Origin: a virus
Taxonomy: Duplodnaviria; Heunggongvirae; Uroviricota; Caudoviricetes
IMG/VR virus record: IMGVR_UViG_2529293139_000009
Length of the DNA: 7,942 bases
Direction: 5' to 3' (one strand)
In this document: positions 273 through 7,942 of the stretch, piece by piece
Position numbering within the stretch: position 1 is the first letter of the stretch
How the letters are laid out: each line of letters begins with the position of its first letter
Notes under the pieces: model-generated
What the model was told of the DNA's origin: nothing
Seen by the model: the letters and a program-made list of their open reading frames with translations, nothing else
The model's database searches: none
Program-made: the position numbers and the translations under genes

Positions 273-491
273 TTACATCCACATAATTTGCTGCCCTGAC
301 GGCAACGGGTGCGGTCTTACGGCGTGGACTTCTCCCGGCTTCACGATGTATCGCTGTACCGACTCATAAGTGATAAACGTGGCGCTGCAATTCACGTTCT
401 GACACTGGTGATAACGCTCTTTTGTCGTGTCAGTGATATAGCGGCTTGTACGCGCATGTGCGGCATGCTGGCATAAAGGACAATGAAACAT
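273..491 (-). CDS. ogr: Ogr, zinc-finger late-gene transcriptional activator (72 aa)
   Basis: Translation MFHCPLCQHAAHARTSRYITDTTKERYHQCQNVNC... has the Cys4 arrangement CxxC-22-CxxxxC and is recognised as P2 Ogr. Start placed at the internal ATG at 491, which has an RBS GAGGTG 6 nt upstream, not at the ORF-track start at 554. Confidence 0.9.
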   Translation of the reverse strand: MFHCPLCQHAAHARTSRYITDTTKERYHQCQNVNCSATFITYESVQRYIVKPGEVHAVRPHPLPSGQQIMWM

Positions 492-572: not shown

Positions 573-1736
573 TCACTCATCATCTTCTGTTTCGTACTCC
601 ACATCAGAAAGCCTGACCTCAAGCTCCAAGGACGTCGTGAAGCCGCTATTATTCAGAAAATGTGTCACCTTAGTGATTGTCCAGTCCTGCTCGTCTATGA
701 CGCGCTTAAAGCCTGACACTTTGACCGGCGTTTCCGTGTAAATATCTGCCCGACCAGTAGCCAGGCTGATGGAGAACTCCGCAACGCCCCGTTGCAGTTT
801 GTCCCACTTCGCCTGAGCGGCGCGCATAGCCTGCGCTTTTGTGGCATATACCGTGGTCAGGGCAAAAACGTTGTCAGCTTCACCGGCCATGTATTCACCT
901 TCGCGCGCTTCCGGTACTTTTGGCGCTTTCTTCTGCGTGACCGGTTTCGCTTTCGGGTGCTCCAGTGCGCGCAGGTGTTTTTCTTTCTTTTTGCGTTTCA
1001 GTTTTACCTTCTGCTTTTGCGGCTTCGGGTCTTTGGTGTGTAACCACTTTGCCGTTACGCCGGTGTAAGCTCCACGGTCAGCAATCGCAAAATGATGACG
1101 GTCACCGTCGCTGCGGGTGATGGTAATCTGCGGGATTTTTTTACCGCTGGCAGTCACCCCCTGCCCCGCTTTGAGAAACAACAGTTTTCCCATTTTTACC
1201 GACACCTCACCGCCGTTGCGTTCAGCAAGGCGGGTCAGAAATTTCGCATCAGACTCCTGCGACTGGTCGATGTGCGGGATTTTAATTCCGTCCAGTGACG
1301 GCGCGACACTGGCTTCCAGCTTGTTACGGGAGGCTATCGCCTCAACAATCGCACCGAGCGTGGTGTCATGCCATGAGCCTTCACGGCGGGAATTGAGCGT
1401 CCCGCGAAAATCTGCACTCCGGGCGCGGATGGTAACCACATCCGGCGCGCCCCGGTGTTCAACCTCATCAACGGTGAATTTCCCTTTGCATACCAGGGCA
1501 AAACCTTTCCAGCCGATATACACCGTCAGGACAGCGCCACGAACCGGCAGCCCGACCTGCCCGTCGGCATCGTTCAGTTCAATATCAAGCTGGTCAGCCT
1601 CAAAGCCCCGGTTATCCGTCAGGGTCATGCTCATCAGACGGTCGCTGATATTGCCGGTAATATCCCTGCTGTCGAGCATCAGCATGTAATCCGGCGTCAG
1701 CGTACTGCCTGCATCAAATGTCAGCGCATCCAGCAT
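573..1736 (-). CDS. D: Tail protein gpD (387 aa), P2 D-like late tail gene product
   Basis: 387-aa ORF recognised as P2 gpD by sequence and by position (last gene of the tail operon before ogr). Its ATG overlaps the U stop (TAATG). Confidence 0.9.
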   Translation of the reverse strand: MLDALTFDAGSTLTPDYMLMLDSRDITGNISDRLMSMTLTDNRGFEADQLDIELNDADGQVGLPVRGAVLTVYIGWKGFALVCKGKFTVDEVEHRGAPDVVTIRARSADFRGTLNSRREGSWHDTTLGAIVEAIASRNKLEASVAPSLDGIKIPHIDQSQESDAKFLTRLAERNGGEVSVKMGKLLFLKAGQGVTASGKKIPQITITRSDGDRHHFAIADRGAYTGVTAKWLHTKDPKPQKQKVKLKRKKKEKHLRALEHPKAKPVTQKKAPKVPEAREGEYMAGEADNVFALTTVYATKAQAMRAAQAKWDKLQRGVAEFSISLATGRADIYTETPVKVSGFKRVIDEQDWTITKVTHFLNNSGFTTSLELEVRLSDVEYETEDDE

Positions 1737-2215
1737 TATCCCGCCCCCGTCATACCCGTGAATTTAGTCGCCATACTGCCAGCCTTACCGATGAGCGATT
1801 CCGCCTGTTTACCGATATCGCCATAAAGCGCGGCCAGTGATTCATCAACGCGGGTGAGCGACAGCGTAAAATCAATTTTCCGGGGTGTGCCGTCTGCAAA
1901 GAAAATACTCCCTGTTTCATTCACCCTGCTGATGACATACATGCCGTAAATCATGCCGGTGCCATCCAGCAACGGCCACGCCCGACCTTCCTCTGCCATC
2001 AGTCTGAGCGTGGTCATCGTCAGCTTGCCGCCGGTCAGTTCGGGATAAAGCACGCCGGCAAGCGTAATGTTTTCCTCACCCACACCGAGAAACTGAAAGG
2101 CATCCCGTTTACCGATACGGGAATTTGACGGCCAGCGATAATCTGATTCACGCTGCATGGTCTGGTGTGGCAGCGTCTGGCGCATAAAAACAAACATACC
2201 TAACGCGAGCATCAT
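1736..2215 (-). CDS. U: Tail protein gpU (159 aa)
   Basis: 159-aa ORF between T and D, recognised as P2 gpU. A strong RBS GGAGGTGA sits 6 nt upstream, directly after the T stop codon. Confidence 0.9.
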   Translation of the reverse strand: MMLALGMFVFMRQTLPHQTMQRESDYRWPSNSRIGKRDAFQFLGVGEENITLAGVLYPELTGGKLTMTTLRLMAEEGRAWPLLDGTGMIYGMYVISRVNETGSIFFADGTPRKIDFTLSLTRVDESLAALYGDIGKQAESLIGKAGSMATKFTGMTGAG

Positions 2216-2229
2216 TTTTCGTCACCTCC

Positions 2230-4677
2230 TTAACCGTCATGCATCATGCTGGCACGGGCGCGCGCACGTTTATCCCGCTCATATTTTTCGAGCGCATCCT
2301 GTAACTGGCGGTCGAGCTGAGTCCCCGGCGCAGTACCGCCCGTCAGACTGATGTGATATTCGTTTTTACTCTGGTCCACATAAGAGCGGCCAGCCGGTGC
2401 CGTAACCGGCTGATAAGCCTGATAGCCTGCATAAGAGCTGGTCGCCGGAATATAACCACCGGTGCCATACGTGGCGGCATGAGTTCTGGCGGCGGTCTGG
2501 TCAAGTGTGTCTGACTCTTTGTTGATAACACCGAGTTTTTCCAGTACCCAGTCAATACCACTGCGCAGTTTGTTGAACGCATTAAGCGGCAGCATCAACG
2601 CGTCAGCCAGTGCCTGCCCGAACATGACGCCCGTGTCACGGCAACGGTTCAGGGTGTCCTGGGTGGCTTTAACCGGGGCAATCAGGTTTTTAAACCACTG
2701 CCACGCGGCCTGTAACTTTTCGCCCAGCCAGTCAAACACCGGCTTAAGTGGCGTGAACAGTTCCCCCACCGGCGCAAATGCCGCTTTCAGCCCTTCCACC
2801 ACACCGCCAAAGAATGCGCTGACAGGCTCCCAGTATTTACGGATAAGCAACGCCCCGGCGACAATGGCGGCCACCACGGCCACAACCGGCCAGCTAATCG
2901 CTCCGATGGCGGTCATAACAGCACTGCCAACCGTCGTGAAGATTGCCCCCATTGCGCCTGCTGCCGCGATGATGGCATTGATGCCGGTGATAACCGGCCA
3001 GGCTACGAGGCCAATGGCACCGATGACACCAATCAGTGCCAGTGCACCACCGACAATAAGTCCGATGGTTGACGCCAGTGATTTGTTTTTCTGGATCCAG
3101 CCGTCGAGTTTTAACACATACTTTGTGGCCGTCTGCGTGAGCTTACGCAGTGCGCCTTCCTGCTGGTCAAACAGGTCAGTCCCCACCGCCTCATAAGCGG
3201 ACTGAAACTCTTTAAAGTCACCGCCTAGGTTGTCCTGCATGATATTTACCAGCTCGGCAGTCTTCCCGTCTGAGGCTTTAAACGCAGCGGTCAGTTTGTC
3301 CAGCTTTCCGGTTGAGGCGGCAGTCATCAGCACGGCGGCGGCTGAGCTGGCCTCCTCCCCGAAAATAGTTTTCATGTATTCAGCCTGCTGGGCAGTACCG
3401 AGCCGGTTTTTCTCAAAACTGGCCTGCATTTCTTTCAGAATGGTAAATATTGGCCGGGTGTTTCCCTTGCTGTCTGAGGTTTTCACGCCAAGCTCTTTGA
3501 GTGCATCCCATGCTTTTCCCGTCGGTGCCTGCAGGCGGCTTAACACGGCACGGCTTCCCGTCCCCGCCATTGAGCCTGTGATTTTTGCATCATGCAGCGC
3601 CCCGACCATTGCGGCGGTTTCTTCAATGCTGACACCGGCATTTTTTGCCACAGGTGCGGCATAGGTCAGCGCATCGCTCATACCGTCAAAATCGGCGGCG
3701 GTTTTGTTCATCGTCATGGAGAGAACATCCCCGATATGAGCGACCTTATCGTTTGAAAGCTGAAAGGCGGATTTCATCCCCATCAGCAGGGCGGCGTTTT
3801 CTTCCATCGTGCGGCGGTTCGCCAGCGCCATATTCAGCGTGACCGGCGTTGCCGCCTGAATGGCATCAACATCCCCACCCGCTTTCGCAATAATAATCTG
3901 CGCACCGGCCGCATCATCCGCCGAGGCGGCGGTGTTGTCGCCGAGCTGGCGCGCCTGTTTGCGGAGCGCGGCCATTTCGGCGGAGTCTTTTGCCACTCCG
4001 AGCACAGCCTGTAATTCTGAGTTTTTCTGCGCAAACTCATAACCGGGCATCAGCAGCTTAACTCCGGCCATCGTTCCCGCCGCCGCAATCCCCACACCGG
4101 CAGCGCCCACTGAGGCCATATTTCCGGCCAGTTCCTTGCCGGCCTGATAACGCTGTTTGACTGCGTTAAGTTTTGCCTGTTGTTCACTGACACGCGCCAG
4201 TGCATCGCGCTGACGGTTAAGCTGTGCGGTGGTTTCACTGATACGGTTTTTCAGCCCCTGCTCATCATGTGCAAGATTGCGGGTATTAATTCCCACAGCG
4301 GCCAGTTCCCGCTGCTGGCGCTTAACGGAATCCGTCAGGCGGTTATATTTCGCCTGTAAGTCCTCCGCCGCACGCTTCGCGGATTCCAGCACTTTCGCCT
4401 GAGCACGTGTCGGACGTTCAGTGTTTTTAAACTGTGTGGCAAGGGCTTCGGCCTCCTGCCGTGCCTTTTCAAGTGCATGACCAGTCACGGCGAGCTGTGC
4501 GCTGGTCTTGCGAAATCCCTCAATACGGGATGCGTGACCGTTCAGCTCGCGCAGTGATTTTTGTGTTTCCCGGATATCCCCCGACAGCGACTTGCTCGCT
4601 GTGCGGATGGATTTAAACGGGCGGGATGCCTGGTCAACAGCCCTGAGCAATACCTGTAATTTTACATTGTTACTCAT
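2230..4677 (-). CDS. T: Tail tape measure protein gpT (815 aa)
   Basis: 815-aa ORF with an N-terminal coiled-coil-like, Ala/Gln/Arg-rich region and a long Gly/Ala/Ile hydrophobic segment (residues about 533-612), typical of tape measure proteins. Size and position match P2 gpT. Confidence 0.92.
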   Translation of the reverse strand: MSNNVKLQVLLRAVDQASRPFKSIRTASKSLSGDIRETQKSLRELNGHASRIEGFRKTSAQLAVTGHALEKARQEAEALATQFKNTERPTRAQAKVLESAKRAAEDLQAKYNRLTDSVKRQQRELAAVGINTRNLAHDEQGLKNRISETTAQLNRQRDALARVSEQQAKLNAVKQRYQAGKELAGNMASVGAAGVGIAAAGTMAGVKLLMPGYEFAQKNSELQAVLGVAKDSAEMAALRKQARQLGDNTAASADDAAGAQIIIAKAGGDVDAIQAATPVTLNMALANRRTMEENAALLMGMKSAFQLSNDKVAHIGDVLSMTMNKTAADFDGMSDALTYAAPVAKNAGVSIEETAAMVGALHDAKITGSMAGTGSRAVLSRLQAPTGKAWDALKELGVKTSDSKGNTRPIFTILKEMQASFEKNRLGTAQQAEYMKTIFGEEASSAAAVLMTAASTGKLDKLTAAFKASDGKTAELVNIMQDNLGGDFKEFQSAYEAVGTDLFDQQEGALRKLTQTATKYVLKLDGWIQKNKSLASTIGLIVGGALALIGVIGAIGLVAWPVITGINAIIAAAGAMGAIFTTVGSAVMTAIGAISWPVVAVVAAIVAGALLIRKYWEPVSAFFGGVVEGLKAAFAPVGELFTPLKPVFDWLGEKLQAAWQWFKNLIAPVKATQDTLNRCRDTGVMFGQALADALMLPLNAFNKLRSGIDWVLEKLGVINKESDTLDQTAARTHAATYGTGGYIPATSSYAGYQAYQPVTAPAGRSYVDQSKNEYHISLTGGTAPGTQLDRQLQDALEKYERDKRARARASMMHDG

Positions 4678-5097
4678 TCGTGTTTCCGCTTCGCCGGAGC
4701 GCCTTTTCGCGCCATGTGATAAGTTCGGTCAGGCTCATGGGATACAGTTCTGATGGCGGCCAGTGAAATATCACTGCCACATCCGCCATCAGGTCATCGA
4801 CCGAGAGATTTTTCGGAAACGTTACTGCACCGAGTTCGGCGACAAAAAACCGACCACCTTACCGGCCAGCGCCACAAGGTCAGGCAGTTCCAGCGCGGCG
4901 ACCTCCTGCTCGGTCAGCATCGGTGCCGTCATGCGCGGCAGCACTTTAATCAGTGCATCGACTTCGGAGTTTGCGACCGCAGCCAGACTGACACCGCGCA
5001 GCGTCCCGGCATTGGGTTTCATCAGCGTGACCTGTTCGATAACCTGCTCACCACGCTTGACCGGATTGTCCAGGGTAATCACATTTTCTTTGTTCAT
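4670..5097 (-). CDS. E': gpE+E' fusion made by -1 programmed ribosomal frameshift (85 aa of E plus a 57-aa extension, 142 aa total)
   Basis: My hand translation of the -1 frame after the slip site runs VAELGAVTFPKNLSVDDLMADVAVIFHWPPSELYPMSLTELITWREKALRRSGNTNE to a TAA at 4670-4672, overlapping the T start codon by 8 nt. This is the P2 E/E' arrangement, analogous to lambda G/GT. Confidence 0.75.
4822..5097 (-). CDS. E: Tail assembly chaperone gpE (91 aa, zero-frame product)
   Basis: 91-aa ORF between FII and T, recognised as P2 gpE. Contains the slippery heptamer T-TTT-TTG near its 3' end. Confidence 0.9.
   Translation of the reverse strand: MNKENVITLDNPVKRGEQVIEQVTLMKPNAGTLRGVSLAAVANSEVDALIKVLPRMTAPMLTEQEVAALELPDLVALAGKVVGFLSPNSVQ
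4843..4849 (-). other. Slippery heptamer T-TTT-TTG for the E/E' -1 frameshift
   Basis: The minus strand reads GGT TTT TTG TCG in the E frame (plus strand 4843-4849 is CAAAAAA), an X-XXY-YYZ motif. Confidence 0.75.
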
Positions 5098-5153: not shown

Positions 5154-5672
5154 TCACAGGCCGATATTGCGGCGGTGTTGCTCCAGCCGGTCGGCGCCGT
5201 TCACCTTCTCAATCATGTTGATGGTGTCGATTTCGACCAGCTCCTTACCGTCCATCGTCAGCCGGAAATAGGTGCAGACCACGGAAATTTTCGACTCGGT
5301 GTCTTCTCCCTGTTTACCCTCGCCGGTGTCGATTTCTTTCTGACGTCCACGCATGACCACCTCGACGGCTACCGTTTCGCCGGTATCGTCGCGCTGGTAA
5401 GAGCCTGCAAAACGAATCGGCACAGCATCCACACCGGTTGCGGCGTAAAGCTCCCAGATAACCGAATCCGGGAAGCCCCCGAGCGACCACTCCATTGACA
5501 GCGCATCGTCATCAAGGCCGAGGTCTACCGGTGCGCTTCCGTTCATCCCCGCACCGCGATAGTTTTCGAGTTTACGGGTCAGTTTTGGCAGCGTGACGGA
5601 CTTTGCAACGCCCTGATAGCTGTAGCCGTTCAGAAAGACGTTCATTAACTTGAGTTTGCGCGGCATTGCCAT
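5154..5672 (-). CDS. FII: Tail tube protein gpFII (172 aa)
   Basis: 172-aa ORF immediately downstream of the sheath gene, recognised as P2 FII. RBS AAGGAG overlaps the FI stop codon. Confidence 0.92.
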   Translation of the reverse strand: MAMPRKLKLMNVFLNGYSYQGVAKSVTLPKLTRKLENYRGAGMNGSAPVDLGLDDDALSMEWSLGGFPDSVIWELYAATGVDAVPIRFAGSYQRDDTGETVAVEVVMRGRQKEIDTGEGKQGEDTESKISVVCTYFRLTMDGKELVEIDTINMIEKVNGADRLEQHRRNIGL

Positions 5673-5684
5673 CGGTCAGGCTCC

Positions 5685-6872
5685 TTAATTGCTGTTAACC
5701 GAGGTGACCAGATTTGCCAGGTATTTATCGGTAATACGCTGGCGCAGGGTCAGGTTTTCAAGAGGAGGAACCGGGGTATAGTCGTAGTCGATATACAGTT
5801 TTCCGGCCTTAAGGGTTTCCGCATCGTTGGATTCTTTGCTGAACCAGCAGGTCGCATCCACGATATAGCCGTTTGTTTTCAGCTCACGAAATTTGGCATT
5901 GATGCCGTCAACGATGTCGCGAATCAGCGTTGCGGTGATGGGCTTGTCAACCGCCCACATGTGCGCCTCAGCCATCGTGTCGGCCAGCACCTGCGCGGTG
6001 CGGGTGTAGTTTTCAAAGAGGAACAGCGGGTCATCAGAGCAGGTACGGTTACCCCAGAATCGGAAACCGTCGCGGCGAATCAGCGTAGTGACGCCTGACT
6101 CGTTAAGCAGGTCAGCATCGGTGCCGGACTCCTGCAAATCCCAGAATACAGATGCGCTGATGCCGGTAACACCGTTTACCCCGACGTTGGACAGCGTTTT
6201 ATGCCATCCCTGCTCCTGGTCGATTTTAGCGCGCAGACCCAGCGCACGGGCGGTGGCATACGCGGTGGCGGTGGTACTGGTGACCGTATCCCATGCGAGG
6301 AAATCCGGCCAGATGACCATCAGCTCACGCTGGCTGAAATTCTGGCGGTAGGCTTTCACCTCGGAAATGGTCTTACAGCCCCATGCGCTGATATATCCGA
6401 AAGCGCGCAGCTTCTGACAGACGGATGCCAATGCAACTGCCACCTCTTTGGTATCCAGTCCCGGCACACCGAGAATACGCGGTTTAACACCGGTTACCGA
6501 CTCCGCCGCCAGCAGGGCTTTTAGTCCGGTGTACTGACCGTTTTCGTCGGTGGTGCCGATGATATTGGAAACGGTCTGCGCGAGTTTCGTTTCCTCGTCG
6601 CCGGTGCCGTCTTCCACACGCACGACAACGGTGACCGGTTTTGACTGGTCGGCGATGGCCTGCAACGATGCCGCCAGCGTGCCTTTTTTACCGGCCTTTG
6701 CAATTGCGCTCTGCACATTGGTAATCAGCACCGGTTTATTGACGGGGAAGGTTTCCGCATCCGCATCGCTGGCCGTGCAGACCATGCCAACAATGGCGGT
6801 GGATACAGTGGAAATGACGCGGGTGCCGTCGTTAATCTCCAGCACCTGCACGCCGTGATGATAGTCACTCAT
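5685..6872 (-). CDS. FI: Contractile tail sheath protein gpFI (395 aa)
   Basis: 395-aa ORF, first gene of the FI-FII-E-T-U-D block, recognised as P2 FI. RBS GGAG 8 nt upstream of the ATG at 6872. Confidence 0.92.
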   Translation of the reverse strand: MSDYHHGVQVLEINDGTRVISTVSTAIVGMVCTASDADAETFPVNKPVLITNVQSAIAKAGKKGTLAASLQAIADQSKPVTVVVRVEDGTGDEETKLAQTVSNIIGTTDENGQYTGLKALLAAESVTGVKPRILGVPGLDTKEVAVALASVCQKLRAFGYISAWGCKTISEVKAYRQNFSQRELMVIWPDFLAWDTVTSTTATAYATARALGLRAKIDQEQGWHKTLSNVGVNGVTGISASVFWDLQESGTDADLLNESGVTTLIRRDGFRFWGNRTCSDDPLFLFENYTRTAQVLADTMAEAHMWAVDKPITATLIRDIVDGINAKFRELKTNGYIVDATCWFSKESNDAETLKAGKLYIDYDYTPVPPLENLTLRQRITDKYLANLVTSVNSN

Positions 6873-6931: not shown

Positions 6932-7525
6932 CTATTTGTCCCGGTTGGCTAAGGGATGACACAATTTATTCTTTGCCGCTGATGAGGGGAGTTTTTTATA
7001 GAGCGTGGACAGGCCAATATCAAAAATCAGCGCCACGCGTTGACGTGATTCACCCGCAGCCAGCAACCGTCCTGCCTGTTCCCACTCACTCGCGGTGAGC
7101 TTCGGACGTCTGCCACCAATACGCCCTTTGGCTCTGGCCGCTTCCAGTCCGGCGCGTGTCCGCTCGACAATGAGTTCTCGCTCCATTTCAGCCAGGGGAC
7201 CCATCACATGAAAGAAAAAACGCCCCATCGGCGTGCTGGTATCAATAGCATCTGTCAGGCTGCGAAAATTAACGCCGCGTTCGCGCAGCTCCTCAACCAG
7301 AATGACCAGATGCCGCATACTACGCCCCAGCCGGTCCAGCTTCCAGACTACCAGAGTGTCACCTGCTGATAATGTTCTGAGCAGTTTTTTCAGTCCCGGT
7401 CGGTCGGACTTCGTGCCGCTGATTTTATCCTCAAAAATCCGCTCGCATCCTGCGCACTCCAGCGCGTTACGCTGCAATTCCGTGTTCTGGTCATTTGTTG
7501 ACACGCGTACATAGCCAATAAGCAT
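6932..7525 (-). CDS. Serine DNA invertase of the Gin/Pin/Cin/Hin family (about 197 aa)
   Basis: N-terminus MLIGYVRVSTNDQNTELQRNAL carries the catalytic serine motif, followed by DTLVVWKLDRLGRS and the conserved GRFFFHVMGPLAEMERELIVERT block, with a C-terminal helix-turn-helix (VALIFDIGLSTLYKK). This is near-collinear with Gin and Hin as I recall them. Start set at the second ATG (7525) because the GGGGG RBS abuts the first ATG at 7531. Confidence 0.9.
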   Translation of the reverse strand: MLIGYVRVSTNDQNTELQRNALECAGCERIFEDKISGTKSDRPGLKKLLRTLSAGDTLVVWKLDRLGRSMRHLVILVEELRERGVNFRSLTDAIDTSTPMGRFFFHVMGPLAEMERELIVERTRAGLEAARAKGRIGGRRPKLTASEWEQAGRLLAAGESRQRVALIFDIGLSTLYKKLPSSAAKNKLCHPLANRDK

Positions 7526-7552
7526 GAGCATCCCCCTGAATAAAAACCGGAG

Positions 7553-7942
7553 ATGATGCCAGTTGCCCGTTATCTCTGCATTTTCATAAACGTTGGTTTG
7601 GGAGAAGGCTCTGCATTACCTGTTGGTGTCCCTGTTCCGTGGCCTTCAGCCACTCCGCCAACAGGCTGGCTGAAATGCAATGGTGCAGCTTTTTCTGCTG
7701 AAGAATACCCGGAACTGGCAAAGGCTTATCCGACAAATAAATTGCCTGATTTACGTGGTGAGTTTATTCGCGGCTGGGATGACGGGCGCGGGGTTGACTC
7801 TGGACGAGGTTTGTTGACGGCGCAGGCGGAAACAAAGATAACTAACCACCACGGCAATGGCGGTAACGCTGATGATATTTCGGCTGGTGTCTCCGGTTCA
7901 CCTCCCAAAAAACTTTGTCAGAAACGCGGATTCGGCAGTTAA
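7553..7942 (+). CDS. Tail-fibre variable C-terminal segment (Mu/P1 S-variable-like), alternate-orientation cassette of an invertible segment; possibly truncated
   Basis: The stretch PVGVPVPWPSATPPTGWLKCNGAAFSAEEYPELAKAYPTNKLPDLRGEFIRGWDDGRG resembles the conserved start of Mu/P1/e14 tail-fibre variable parts just after the crossover site. The first 13 or so codons lie outside the putative invertible segment, and the ORF's stop codon is the last 3 nt of the window. Confidence 0.6.
   Translation: MMPVARYLCIFINVGLGEGSALPVGVPVPWPSATPPTGWLKCNGAAFSAEEYPELAKAYPTNKLPDLRGEFIRGWDDGRGVDSGRGLLTAQAETKITNHHGNGGNADDISAGVSGSPPKKLCQKRGFGS
7581..7606. other. Candidate 26-bp invertase crossover site (hix/gix/cix-like)
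   Basis: TTTTCATAAACG-TT-GGTTTGGGAGAA fits the imperfect-palindrome architecture xxxxxxAAACx-NN-GGTTTxxGAxAA of hixL (TTCTTGAAAACCAAGGTTTTTGATAA, from memory). It lies 55 bp upstream of the invertase start, inside the 5' end of the tail-fibre ORF. Confidence 0.55.

Follow-up and report, generated by a model that had tools for sequence, protein, structure and literature searches.

The window, the whole stretch of 7,942 nucleotides analysed here, very probably closes with the invertase-proximal end of a Gin/Cin/Pin-type invertible tail-fibre segment of a P2-like E. coli prophage, judging from gene content and homology. The switch is of the classical Gin/Cin/Pin type, nearest to the e14 P segment in size and sequence and carried on a P2-like backbone, and as such the system is already known. 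Its sole departure is a private one-base frameshift in the tail-fibre cassette with which the window ends: alignment to intact relatives attributes the early stop of this cassette to A6 in place of A5 at 7907-7912.

The six-frame ORF list contains a P2-type late and tail module, ogr-D-U-T-E-FII-FI, followed by a serine invertase, a 26-bp crossover site and a cassette that reads away from the invertase. The minus-strand genes are as follows.

273-491, minus strand: ogr zinc-finger activator
573-1736, minus strand: D
1736-2215, minus strand: U
2230-4677, minus strand: tape measure T
4822-5097, minus strand: E
5154-5672, minus strand: tail tube FII
5685-6872, minus strand: tail sheath FI
6932-7531, minus strand: serine DNA invertase of the Gin/Cin/Pin/Hin type (Pfam Resolvase N-terminal and HTH_7)

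Annotated E. coli P2-like prophages match this arrangement at 97-99% identity across 98% of the window, with the same product names and synteny. A whole-window search found no complete E. coli genome with the entire window, the best match covering 98% and ending at 7806-7817, and the exact tail module and the silent cassette occur together in none of the complete E. coli genomes searched. In the closest relative, strain DCE7 (L004), window position 1 directly follows the yegQ stop codon (L004 4500/4501), and the prophage is located downstream of yegQ. Both edges of the window are gene-call boundaries, 7942 being the final base of a stop codon, and the coincidence of stop and edge probably reflects how the window was cut, not the end of a contig. 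Elsewhere in the window, the FI sheath gene has a 3-nt in-frame difference near 6600 on the minus strand (395 aa, against 396 aa in the closest relative). Plus-strand ORFs of up to 229 aa, at 792-1689 and 2507-3664, run antisense to D and the tape-measure gene; these look like shadow ORFs of GC-rich coding sequence, not genes.

The recombinase next to the cassette has both the resolvase catalytic domain (Pfam Resolvase, 1e-51, profile positions 2-144 of 145) and a C-terminal helix-turn-helix (HTH_7, 7.6e-13), and its N-terminus, MLIGYVRVST, carries the catalytic-serine motif. Its reading frame opens at 7531 with two in-frame ATGs (7525-7531), the second at 7525. RefSeq relatives are annotated with a 594-nt 'recombinase family protein' beginning at the second ATG (MLIGYVRVST), and the sequence has a GGGGGA Shine-Dalgarno 5 nt ahead of that codon, a better spacing than for the first. 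The true start is likely the second ATG, at 7525. The C-terminal tail of the invertase, ending ...LPSSAAKNKLCHPLANRDK, is longer than that of K-12 PinE (197 aa vs 184 aa).

Beyond the invertase lie the two elements that join it to the cassette.

7532-7580, no strand assigned: fixed spacer serving as invertase leader, from the invertase start to the crossover site, conserved alongside the invertase in relatives
7581-7606, no strand assigned: 26-bp crossover site at the invertase-proximal end of the invertible segment, recognised by its dyad and by pairing and breakpoints in relatives

The site reads TTTTCATAAACG-TT-GGTTTGGGAGAA, two 12-bp half-sites around a central TT at 7593-7594. The dyad is imperfect, with 8 of 12 positions matching between TTTTCATAAACG and TTCTCCCAAACC (the second half-site as its reverse complement), and the whole site occurs once in the window against 0.00 occurrences expected by chance. 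In four relatives (L001, L003, L004 and L011), a 27-nt arm identical to 7581-7607 pairs with an inverted copy inside the tail-fibre gene H, the two arms standing 1824-2799 nt apart; homologous sites are 1848 nt apart in a Mu-like prophage (L002) and 1797 nt apart in K-12 e14 (L005). Every relative fetched, these six, has the second, inverted site in a tail-fibre gene, in the frame ...LGLGE. Furthermore, in several phages that share the invertase, homology ends exactly at window position 7607 (query position 708). The site codes for (N)-V/L-G-L-G-E, in frame with the ...LLAYLGLGE that closes the constant part of H. On this combination of dyad, pairing and breakpoints, 7581-7606 is identified as the recombination site.

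The relatives also present the segment in both orientations, an observation that pertains to them and not to the window's own genome. The E. coli W prophage (L003) and the IMG/VR contig L011 are one prophage with flanks 100% identical, between which the middle 2.8 kb is inverted at 99.97% identity (L003 5814-8645 vs L011 1467-4298). The first inverted base corresponds to window position 7593, and the junctions of the block fall within the homologue of 7593-7607. The E. coli W segment has an IS3-family element between a 189-nt 'hypothetical protein' ORF and H, and it is because of this element that the segment is enlarged to 2.8 kb. The cassette occurs in three settings: fused in frame to a P2-like H as a 510-aa open frame (L008, L011; ...LLAYLGLGE-GSALPVG), fused to 252-aa Mu/e14-like fibres (L002, L006, L007, L013; ...ALENLGLGE-GSALPVG), and silent beside the invertase with the leader MMPV(A/S)... 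(L003, L010, L012, L015). An alternative C-terminal cassette would be expected to occur in this way, both fused and silent. For e14 and P2-like E. coli prophages, experiments have shown such segments to invert, and phase variation of P2-like invertible loci has been measured in EPEC (PMC4272514).

An identical cassette, with 0-9 differences in 350 nt, is common to P2-like prophages (L003, L008, L011) and Mu/e14-like prophages (L002, L006, L007, L013), joined to unrelated fibre N-termini at the conserved GLGE crossover motif. We regard this as a clear case of horizontal exchange of the cassette between the two kinds of prophage.

With the crossover in place, the anatomy of the last ORF of the window can be read as follows.

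7553-7942, plus strand: cassette ORF as called, 129 codons, from an ATG-ATG start to a TAA stop
7625-7768, plus strand: Phage Tail Collar domain (Pfam PF07484) in residues 25-72, which forms the proximal, conserved portion of the variable cassette

The preliminary description of this DNA had reported this ORF and proposed that its 5' end is chimeric, that its start is fortuitous, and that in the other orientation the variable part would be fused to the constant N-terminus of the fibre. The ORF exists as described, its TAA (7940-7942) forming the last bases of the window, and the comparison with relatives agrees with the chimeric 5' end. The fixed, invertase side supplies codons 1-13 (7553-7591), and the crossover centre falls within codon 14. 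Authentic cassette sequence fills codons 15-119, after which codons 120-129 (KLCQKRGFGS) are read in the wrong frame. Both the end of homology at 7607 and the beginning of the L003/L011 inversion fit this division, and the latter pair is a natural example of the proposed fusion. Across the junction the silent ORF reads MMPVARYLCIFINV-GLGE, its junction peptide being MMPVARYLCIFINVGLGE. Fusions of the cassette to a fibre N-terminus lack the invertase leader, the constant fibre N-terminus having taken its place wherever the cassette is expressed.

The ATG-ATG at 7553-7558, which a gene caller takes as the start of the cassette ORF, falls in the invertase leader, and the view that it is fortuitous is well supported by analogy with annotated systems. 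In K-12, the equivalent e14 ORF, stfE, is annotated as a pseudogene, and in the Mu record a GeneMark CDS for S' exceeds the G-segment boundary by 29 nt toward gin. By this analogy, the chimeric start of the window ORF is the same gene-calling artefact as that of Mu S'. We infer that the cassette is unexpressed in its present orientation.

An alternative is that the ORF is an independent small gene read from the ATG-ATG, for example one for a free collar-domain protein, and more than merely a silent cassette. In its favour, the P2-like, Mu-like and e14 versions share an in-frame ATG that precedes the crossover by a few codons, and RefSeq usually labels such ORFs 'phage tail protein'. However, GGAG stands 0 and 3 nt before the two ATGs, a poor Shine-Dalgarno spacing, and a sigma-70 consensus scan of both strands over 7350-7942 found no promoter; the scan likewise missed the promoter of the invertase, so it says little on expression. 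The fixed-side codons also differ freely among elements, K-12 curators treat stfE as a pseudogene, and the overrun of Mu S' is labelled a GeneMark prediction. Moreover, descent of the invertase leader from a common ancestor accounts for the shared ATG. We therefore consider an independent gene very improbable, and we continue to read the ORF as a silent cassette.

Two further observations concern the leader. Relative to the crossover site, the in-frame ATG stands 12-13 codons to the outside in the P2-like (MPVARYLCIFINVGLGE; window 7553-7594), Mu-like (MPVSHNLCIFLNVGLGE; L002 7696-7728) and e14 (MPFACYFFIFINVGLGE; L005 4124-4156) versions, which is probably a matter of common ancestry. In addition, a weak hairpin followed by a T-run occupies 7545-7564 on the minus strand, between the crossover site and the invertase start, in a region with three terminator-like sites against 0.8 expected. 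This hairpin may reduce transcription that reads into the invertase gene from the fibre operon, or its presence may be due to chance.

The collar domain places the cassette among tail-fibre tips. The match to PF07484 has E = 8.5e-16 and 58.1 bits against a cut-off of 24, and an intact homologue has PDB matches to the T4 gp37 tip (2xgf, 4e-16) and to a short tail fibre (9cuy, 7e-15). Intact cassettes have 168 codons in E. coli W, 172 in MS20653, 178 in K-12 stfE and 180 in DCE7, counts that take in 12-13 fixed-side codons. An intact e14-type cassette thus extends about 155 codons beyond the crossover, vs some 319-335 variable codons in Mu. Intact copies run on ...NAGSGFTAFGSGNLTMNGVTSYFGVRPRNIAFNYIVRAA-stop, the stop overlapping the ATG of the tail fibre assembly gene, and all of them carry the conserved C-terminal RPRNIAFNYIVRAA, which the window ORF lacks owing to the frameshift and to the end of the window.

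The cassette could also be a naturally very short receptor-binding tip truly ending at 7942. That e14-type cassettes are naturally modest in length (168-180 codons vs about 320-335 variable codons in Mu) speaks for this idea, whereas the absence of RPRNIAFNYIVRAA, conserved in all relatives and in T4 gp37, speaks against it. We reject a naturally short tip, the chance of which we regard as practically nil, on the ground that nucleotide homology continues unbroken through the stop to the window edge in another frame. The preliminary description had called the ORF shorter than Mu/P1-type variable parts: the shortness is real, relative to intact copies of 168 codons, yet the comparison with Mu and P1 partly reflects a trait of the family, and the portion actually missing is 39 codons. 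The three causes it offered fared differently, the frameshift standing and both the degenerate cassette and the unusually short tip falling away. A degenerate cassette is rejected on the ground that, apart from the extra A, there is no difference from intact copies.

The features that define the frameshift are the following.

7907-7912, plus strand: A6 homopolymer, the frameshift site, one A more than in every intact copy
7914-7940, plus strand: authentic frame after the insertion, FVRNADSAV, +1 relative to the ORF and open to the window edge
7940-7942, plus strand: premature TAA, existing in the shifted frame only (GCA GTT AAT read as ..GC AGT TAA)

Where the window reads CCCAAAAAACTTT (A6), E. 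coli W and strain 165 read CCCAAAAACTTT (A5), and this is the sole distal difference when 7532-7942 is aligned. Against five independent intact copies (L002, L006, L007, L009 and L015), the sequence from 7593 to 7942 has 0 mismatches and 1 gap over 350 nt. All 12 fetched copies have A5. Removal of one A restores ...SPPK-NFVRNADSAV up to the window edge, and bases 7913-7942 are identical to those of intact copies, so that the preliminary suggestion to look for homology in another frame is borne out as far as the window extends. The window ORF thus differs from near-identical intact homologues by a single-base indel after which homology goes on in a new frame: 49 authentic C-terminal residues, ending RPRNIAFNYIVRAA, are replaced by 10 aberrant ones through the +1 shift. 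The cassette looks like an unusually short tip because one homopolymer base shifts its frame.

The A6 allele was sought in several collections. Among 32 complete E. coli genomes with the cassette end, 31 span 162 nt for a 163-nt query and the remaining one spans 159; none matches the query at 100%, and none has A6. The exact A6 pattern had 0 matches in each of the genome, metagenome and viral contig collections. A control pattern with A5 matched 8 viral and 2 metagenome contigs, which validates the exact-pattern approach; it matched nothing in the genome contigs, a collection limited to one genome per species. An exact-protein look-up among some 15 billion proteins returned no record of the 129-aa product.

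These observations leave two main explanations for the extra A. We lean, with some reserve, toward a real mutation, which on the alignments would be a very recent slippage in a cassette under weak selection. The other explanation, to which we attach appreciable but lesser probability, is a homopolymer error of sequencing or assembly, in which case the real cassette would be intact at 168 codons and its early stop artefactual. Homopolymer length errors are a typical failure of several sequencing chemistries, and a lone homopolymer change without other divergence, in a cassette otherwise identical to five independent intact copies and as an allele seen nowhere else, has the look of a base-calling error. 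On the other hand, over 7788 nt the window differs from its closest relative by no single-base indel and by one in-frame 3-nt difference, and every other gene in the window is intact; therefore, the window sequence is not generally error-prone. Slippage from A5 to A6 is also common as a real mutation, and a silent prophage cassette is weakly selected.

A third explanation makes the A-run a site of recoding or phase variation, through programmed ribosomal frameshifting or through transcriptional or reversible slippage, that would superimpose a further on/off control on the inversion switch. A change in a homopolymer directly after CCC may be taken to point this way, and a place inside the receptor-binding part would suit a switch. 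A run of six As, however, is shorter than expected for a contingency tract or for transcriptional slippage, and all other copies examined have A5 and one continuous frame, with no length polymorphism. Programmed frameshifting in particular is rejected, there being no conserved two-frame architecture. We hold recoding or phase variation at the A-run to be extremely improbable. Hardly more weight, and still very little, goes to the pair of ideas that a slippage-prone A-run might reversibly disable one tip or that the 'silent' cassette might be translated from its conserved ATG as a free collar-domain protein. A private mutation in a silent cassette remains our preferred reading.

Known inversion systems help to place the window. 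The e14 P segment of K-12 (pinE, stfE, tfaE, tfaP, stfP/ycfK) likewise has a serine invertase beside a segment bounded by inverted repeats, and it shares the size class of about 1.8 kb between repeat arms. The window's cassette family has INVGLGEGSALPVGVPVPWPSATPPTGWLKCNGAAFSAEEYPELAKAYPTNKLPDLRGEFIRGWDDGRG and the C-terminal ETRPRNIAFNYIVRAA in common with stfE, the silent cassette of e14 (178 codons). The carrier differs: the window's cassette sits on a P2-like myovirus tail module, that of e14 on a defective lambdoid element whose fibre N-terminus is short (about 210 aa). The central variable stretch of the cassette also differs, and the +1 frameshift belongs to the window copy only. The G segment of Mu (S/U, S'/U', gin) is similar in having a constant fibre N-terminus with two alternative C-terminal cassettes, an assembly chaperone for each cassette, an invertase just outside the segment, and a gene-called S' CDS that passes the segment boundary toward gin by 29 nt. 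It differs in its variable parts (about 319-335 codons vs about 155), its segment size (about 3 kb vs about 1.8 kb) and its phage backbone.

The P2-like invertible loci of E. coli, found in the W prophage, in phage pro483 and in EPEC E2348/69 prophages, have the same gene order, namely FI sheath, invertase, crossover site, silent cassette with tfa, second tfa, and H, of which the window covers the part up to the silent cassette. Many genomes carry annotations of loci of this kind. The E. coli W locus has the same cassette type at 97.4% identity to the window, and unlike the window none of these loci has the A6 allele. A more distant likeness is to the long-tail-fibre tip of T4 gp37 (PDB 2XGF), with a homologous collar domain (E = 4e-16) and a shared C-terminal NIAFNYIVR. 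The chain in the gp37-type fold returns from the head to the collar (PMC12609058). T4 gp37 differs in having seven HxH motifs, vs a single HH in the window family, whose needle is much shorter, and it is not part of an inversion switch.

Taken as a mechanism, the cassette in its present position would be silent, lacking a fibre N-terminus and having for its 'start' an ATG-ATG in the invertase leader. Synteny suggests that H and the second crossover site lie beyond 7942 in the window's genome, which would make the switch complete. The predicted invertase would recombine 7581-7606 with its inverted partner inside H, so that the cassette and its downstream assembly-chaperone gene would join the constant part of H in frame at ...LGLGE, and the fibre tip, hence the host range, would switch. 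If the extra A is real, the cassette once switched on would give a fibre without the returning strand and RPRNIAFNYIVRAA: in a fold whose chain returns to the collar, loss of the last 49 residues would take away both the returning strands and the C-terminus that closes the collar. The early stop, about 117 nt before the chaperone start, would moreover uncouple translation of the chaperone. The fibre made from an A6 cassette would then most likely be dead.

Our findings matter little past annotation hygiene. Gene callers give silent cassettes 'chimeric' starts, as in K-12 stfE and Mu S', and one homopolymer base can mimic an unusually short receptor-binding tip. If the extra A is real, fibres made after induction of the prophage would be defective in one of the two states of the switch, a minor instance of how the unexpressed arm of a bet-hedging switch may decay.
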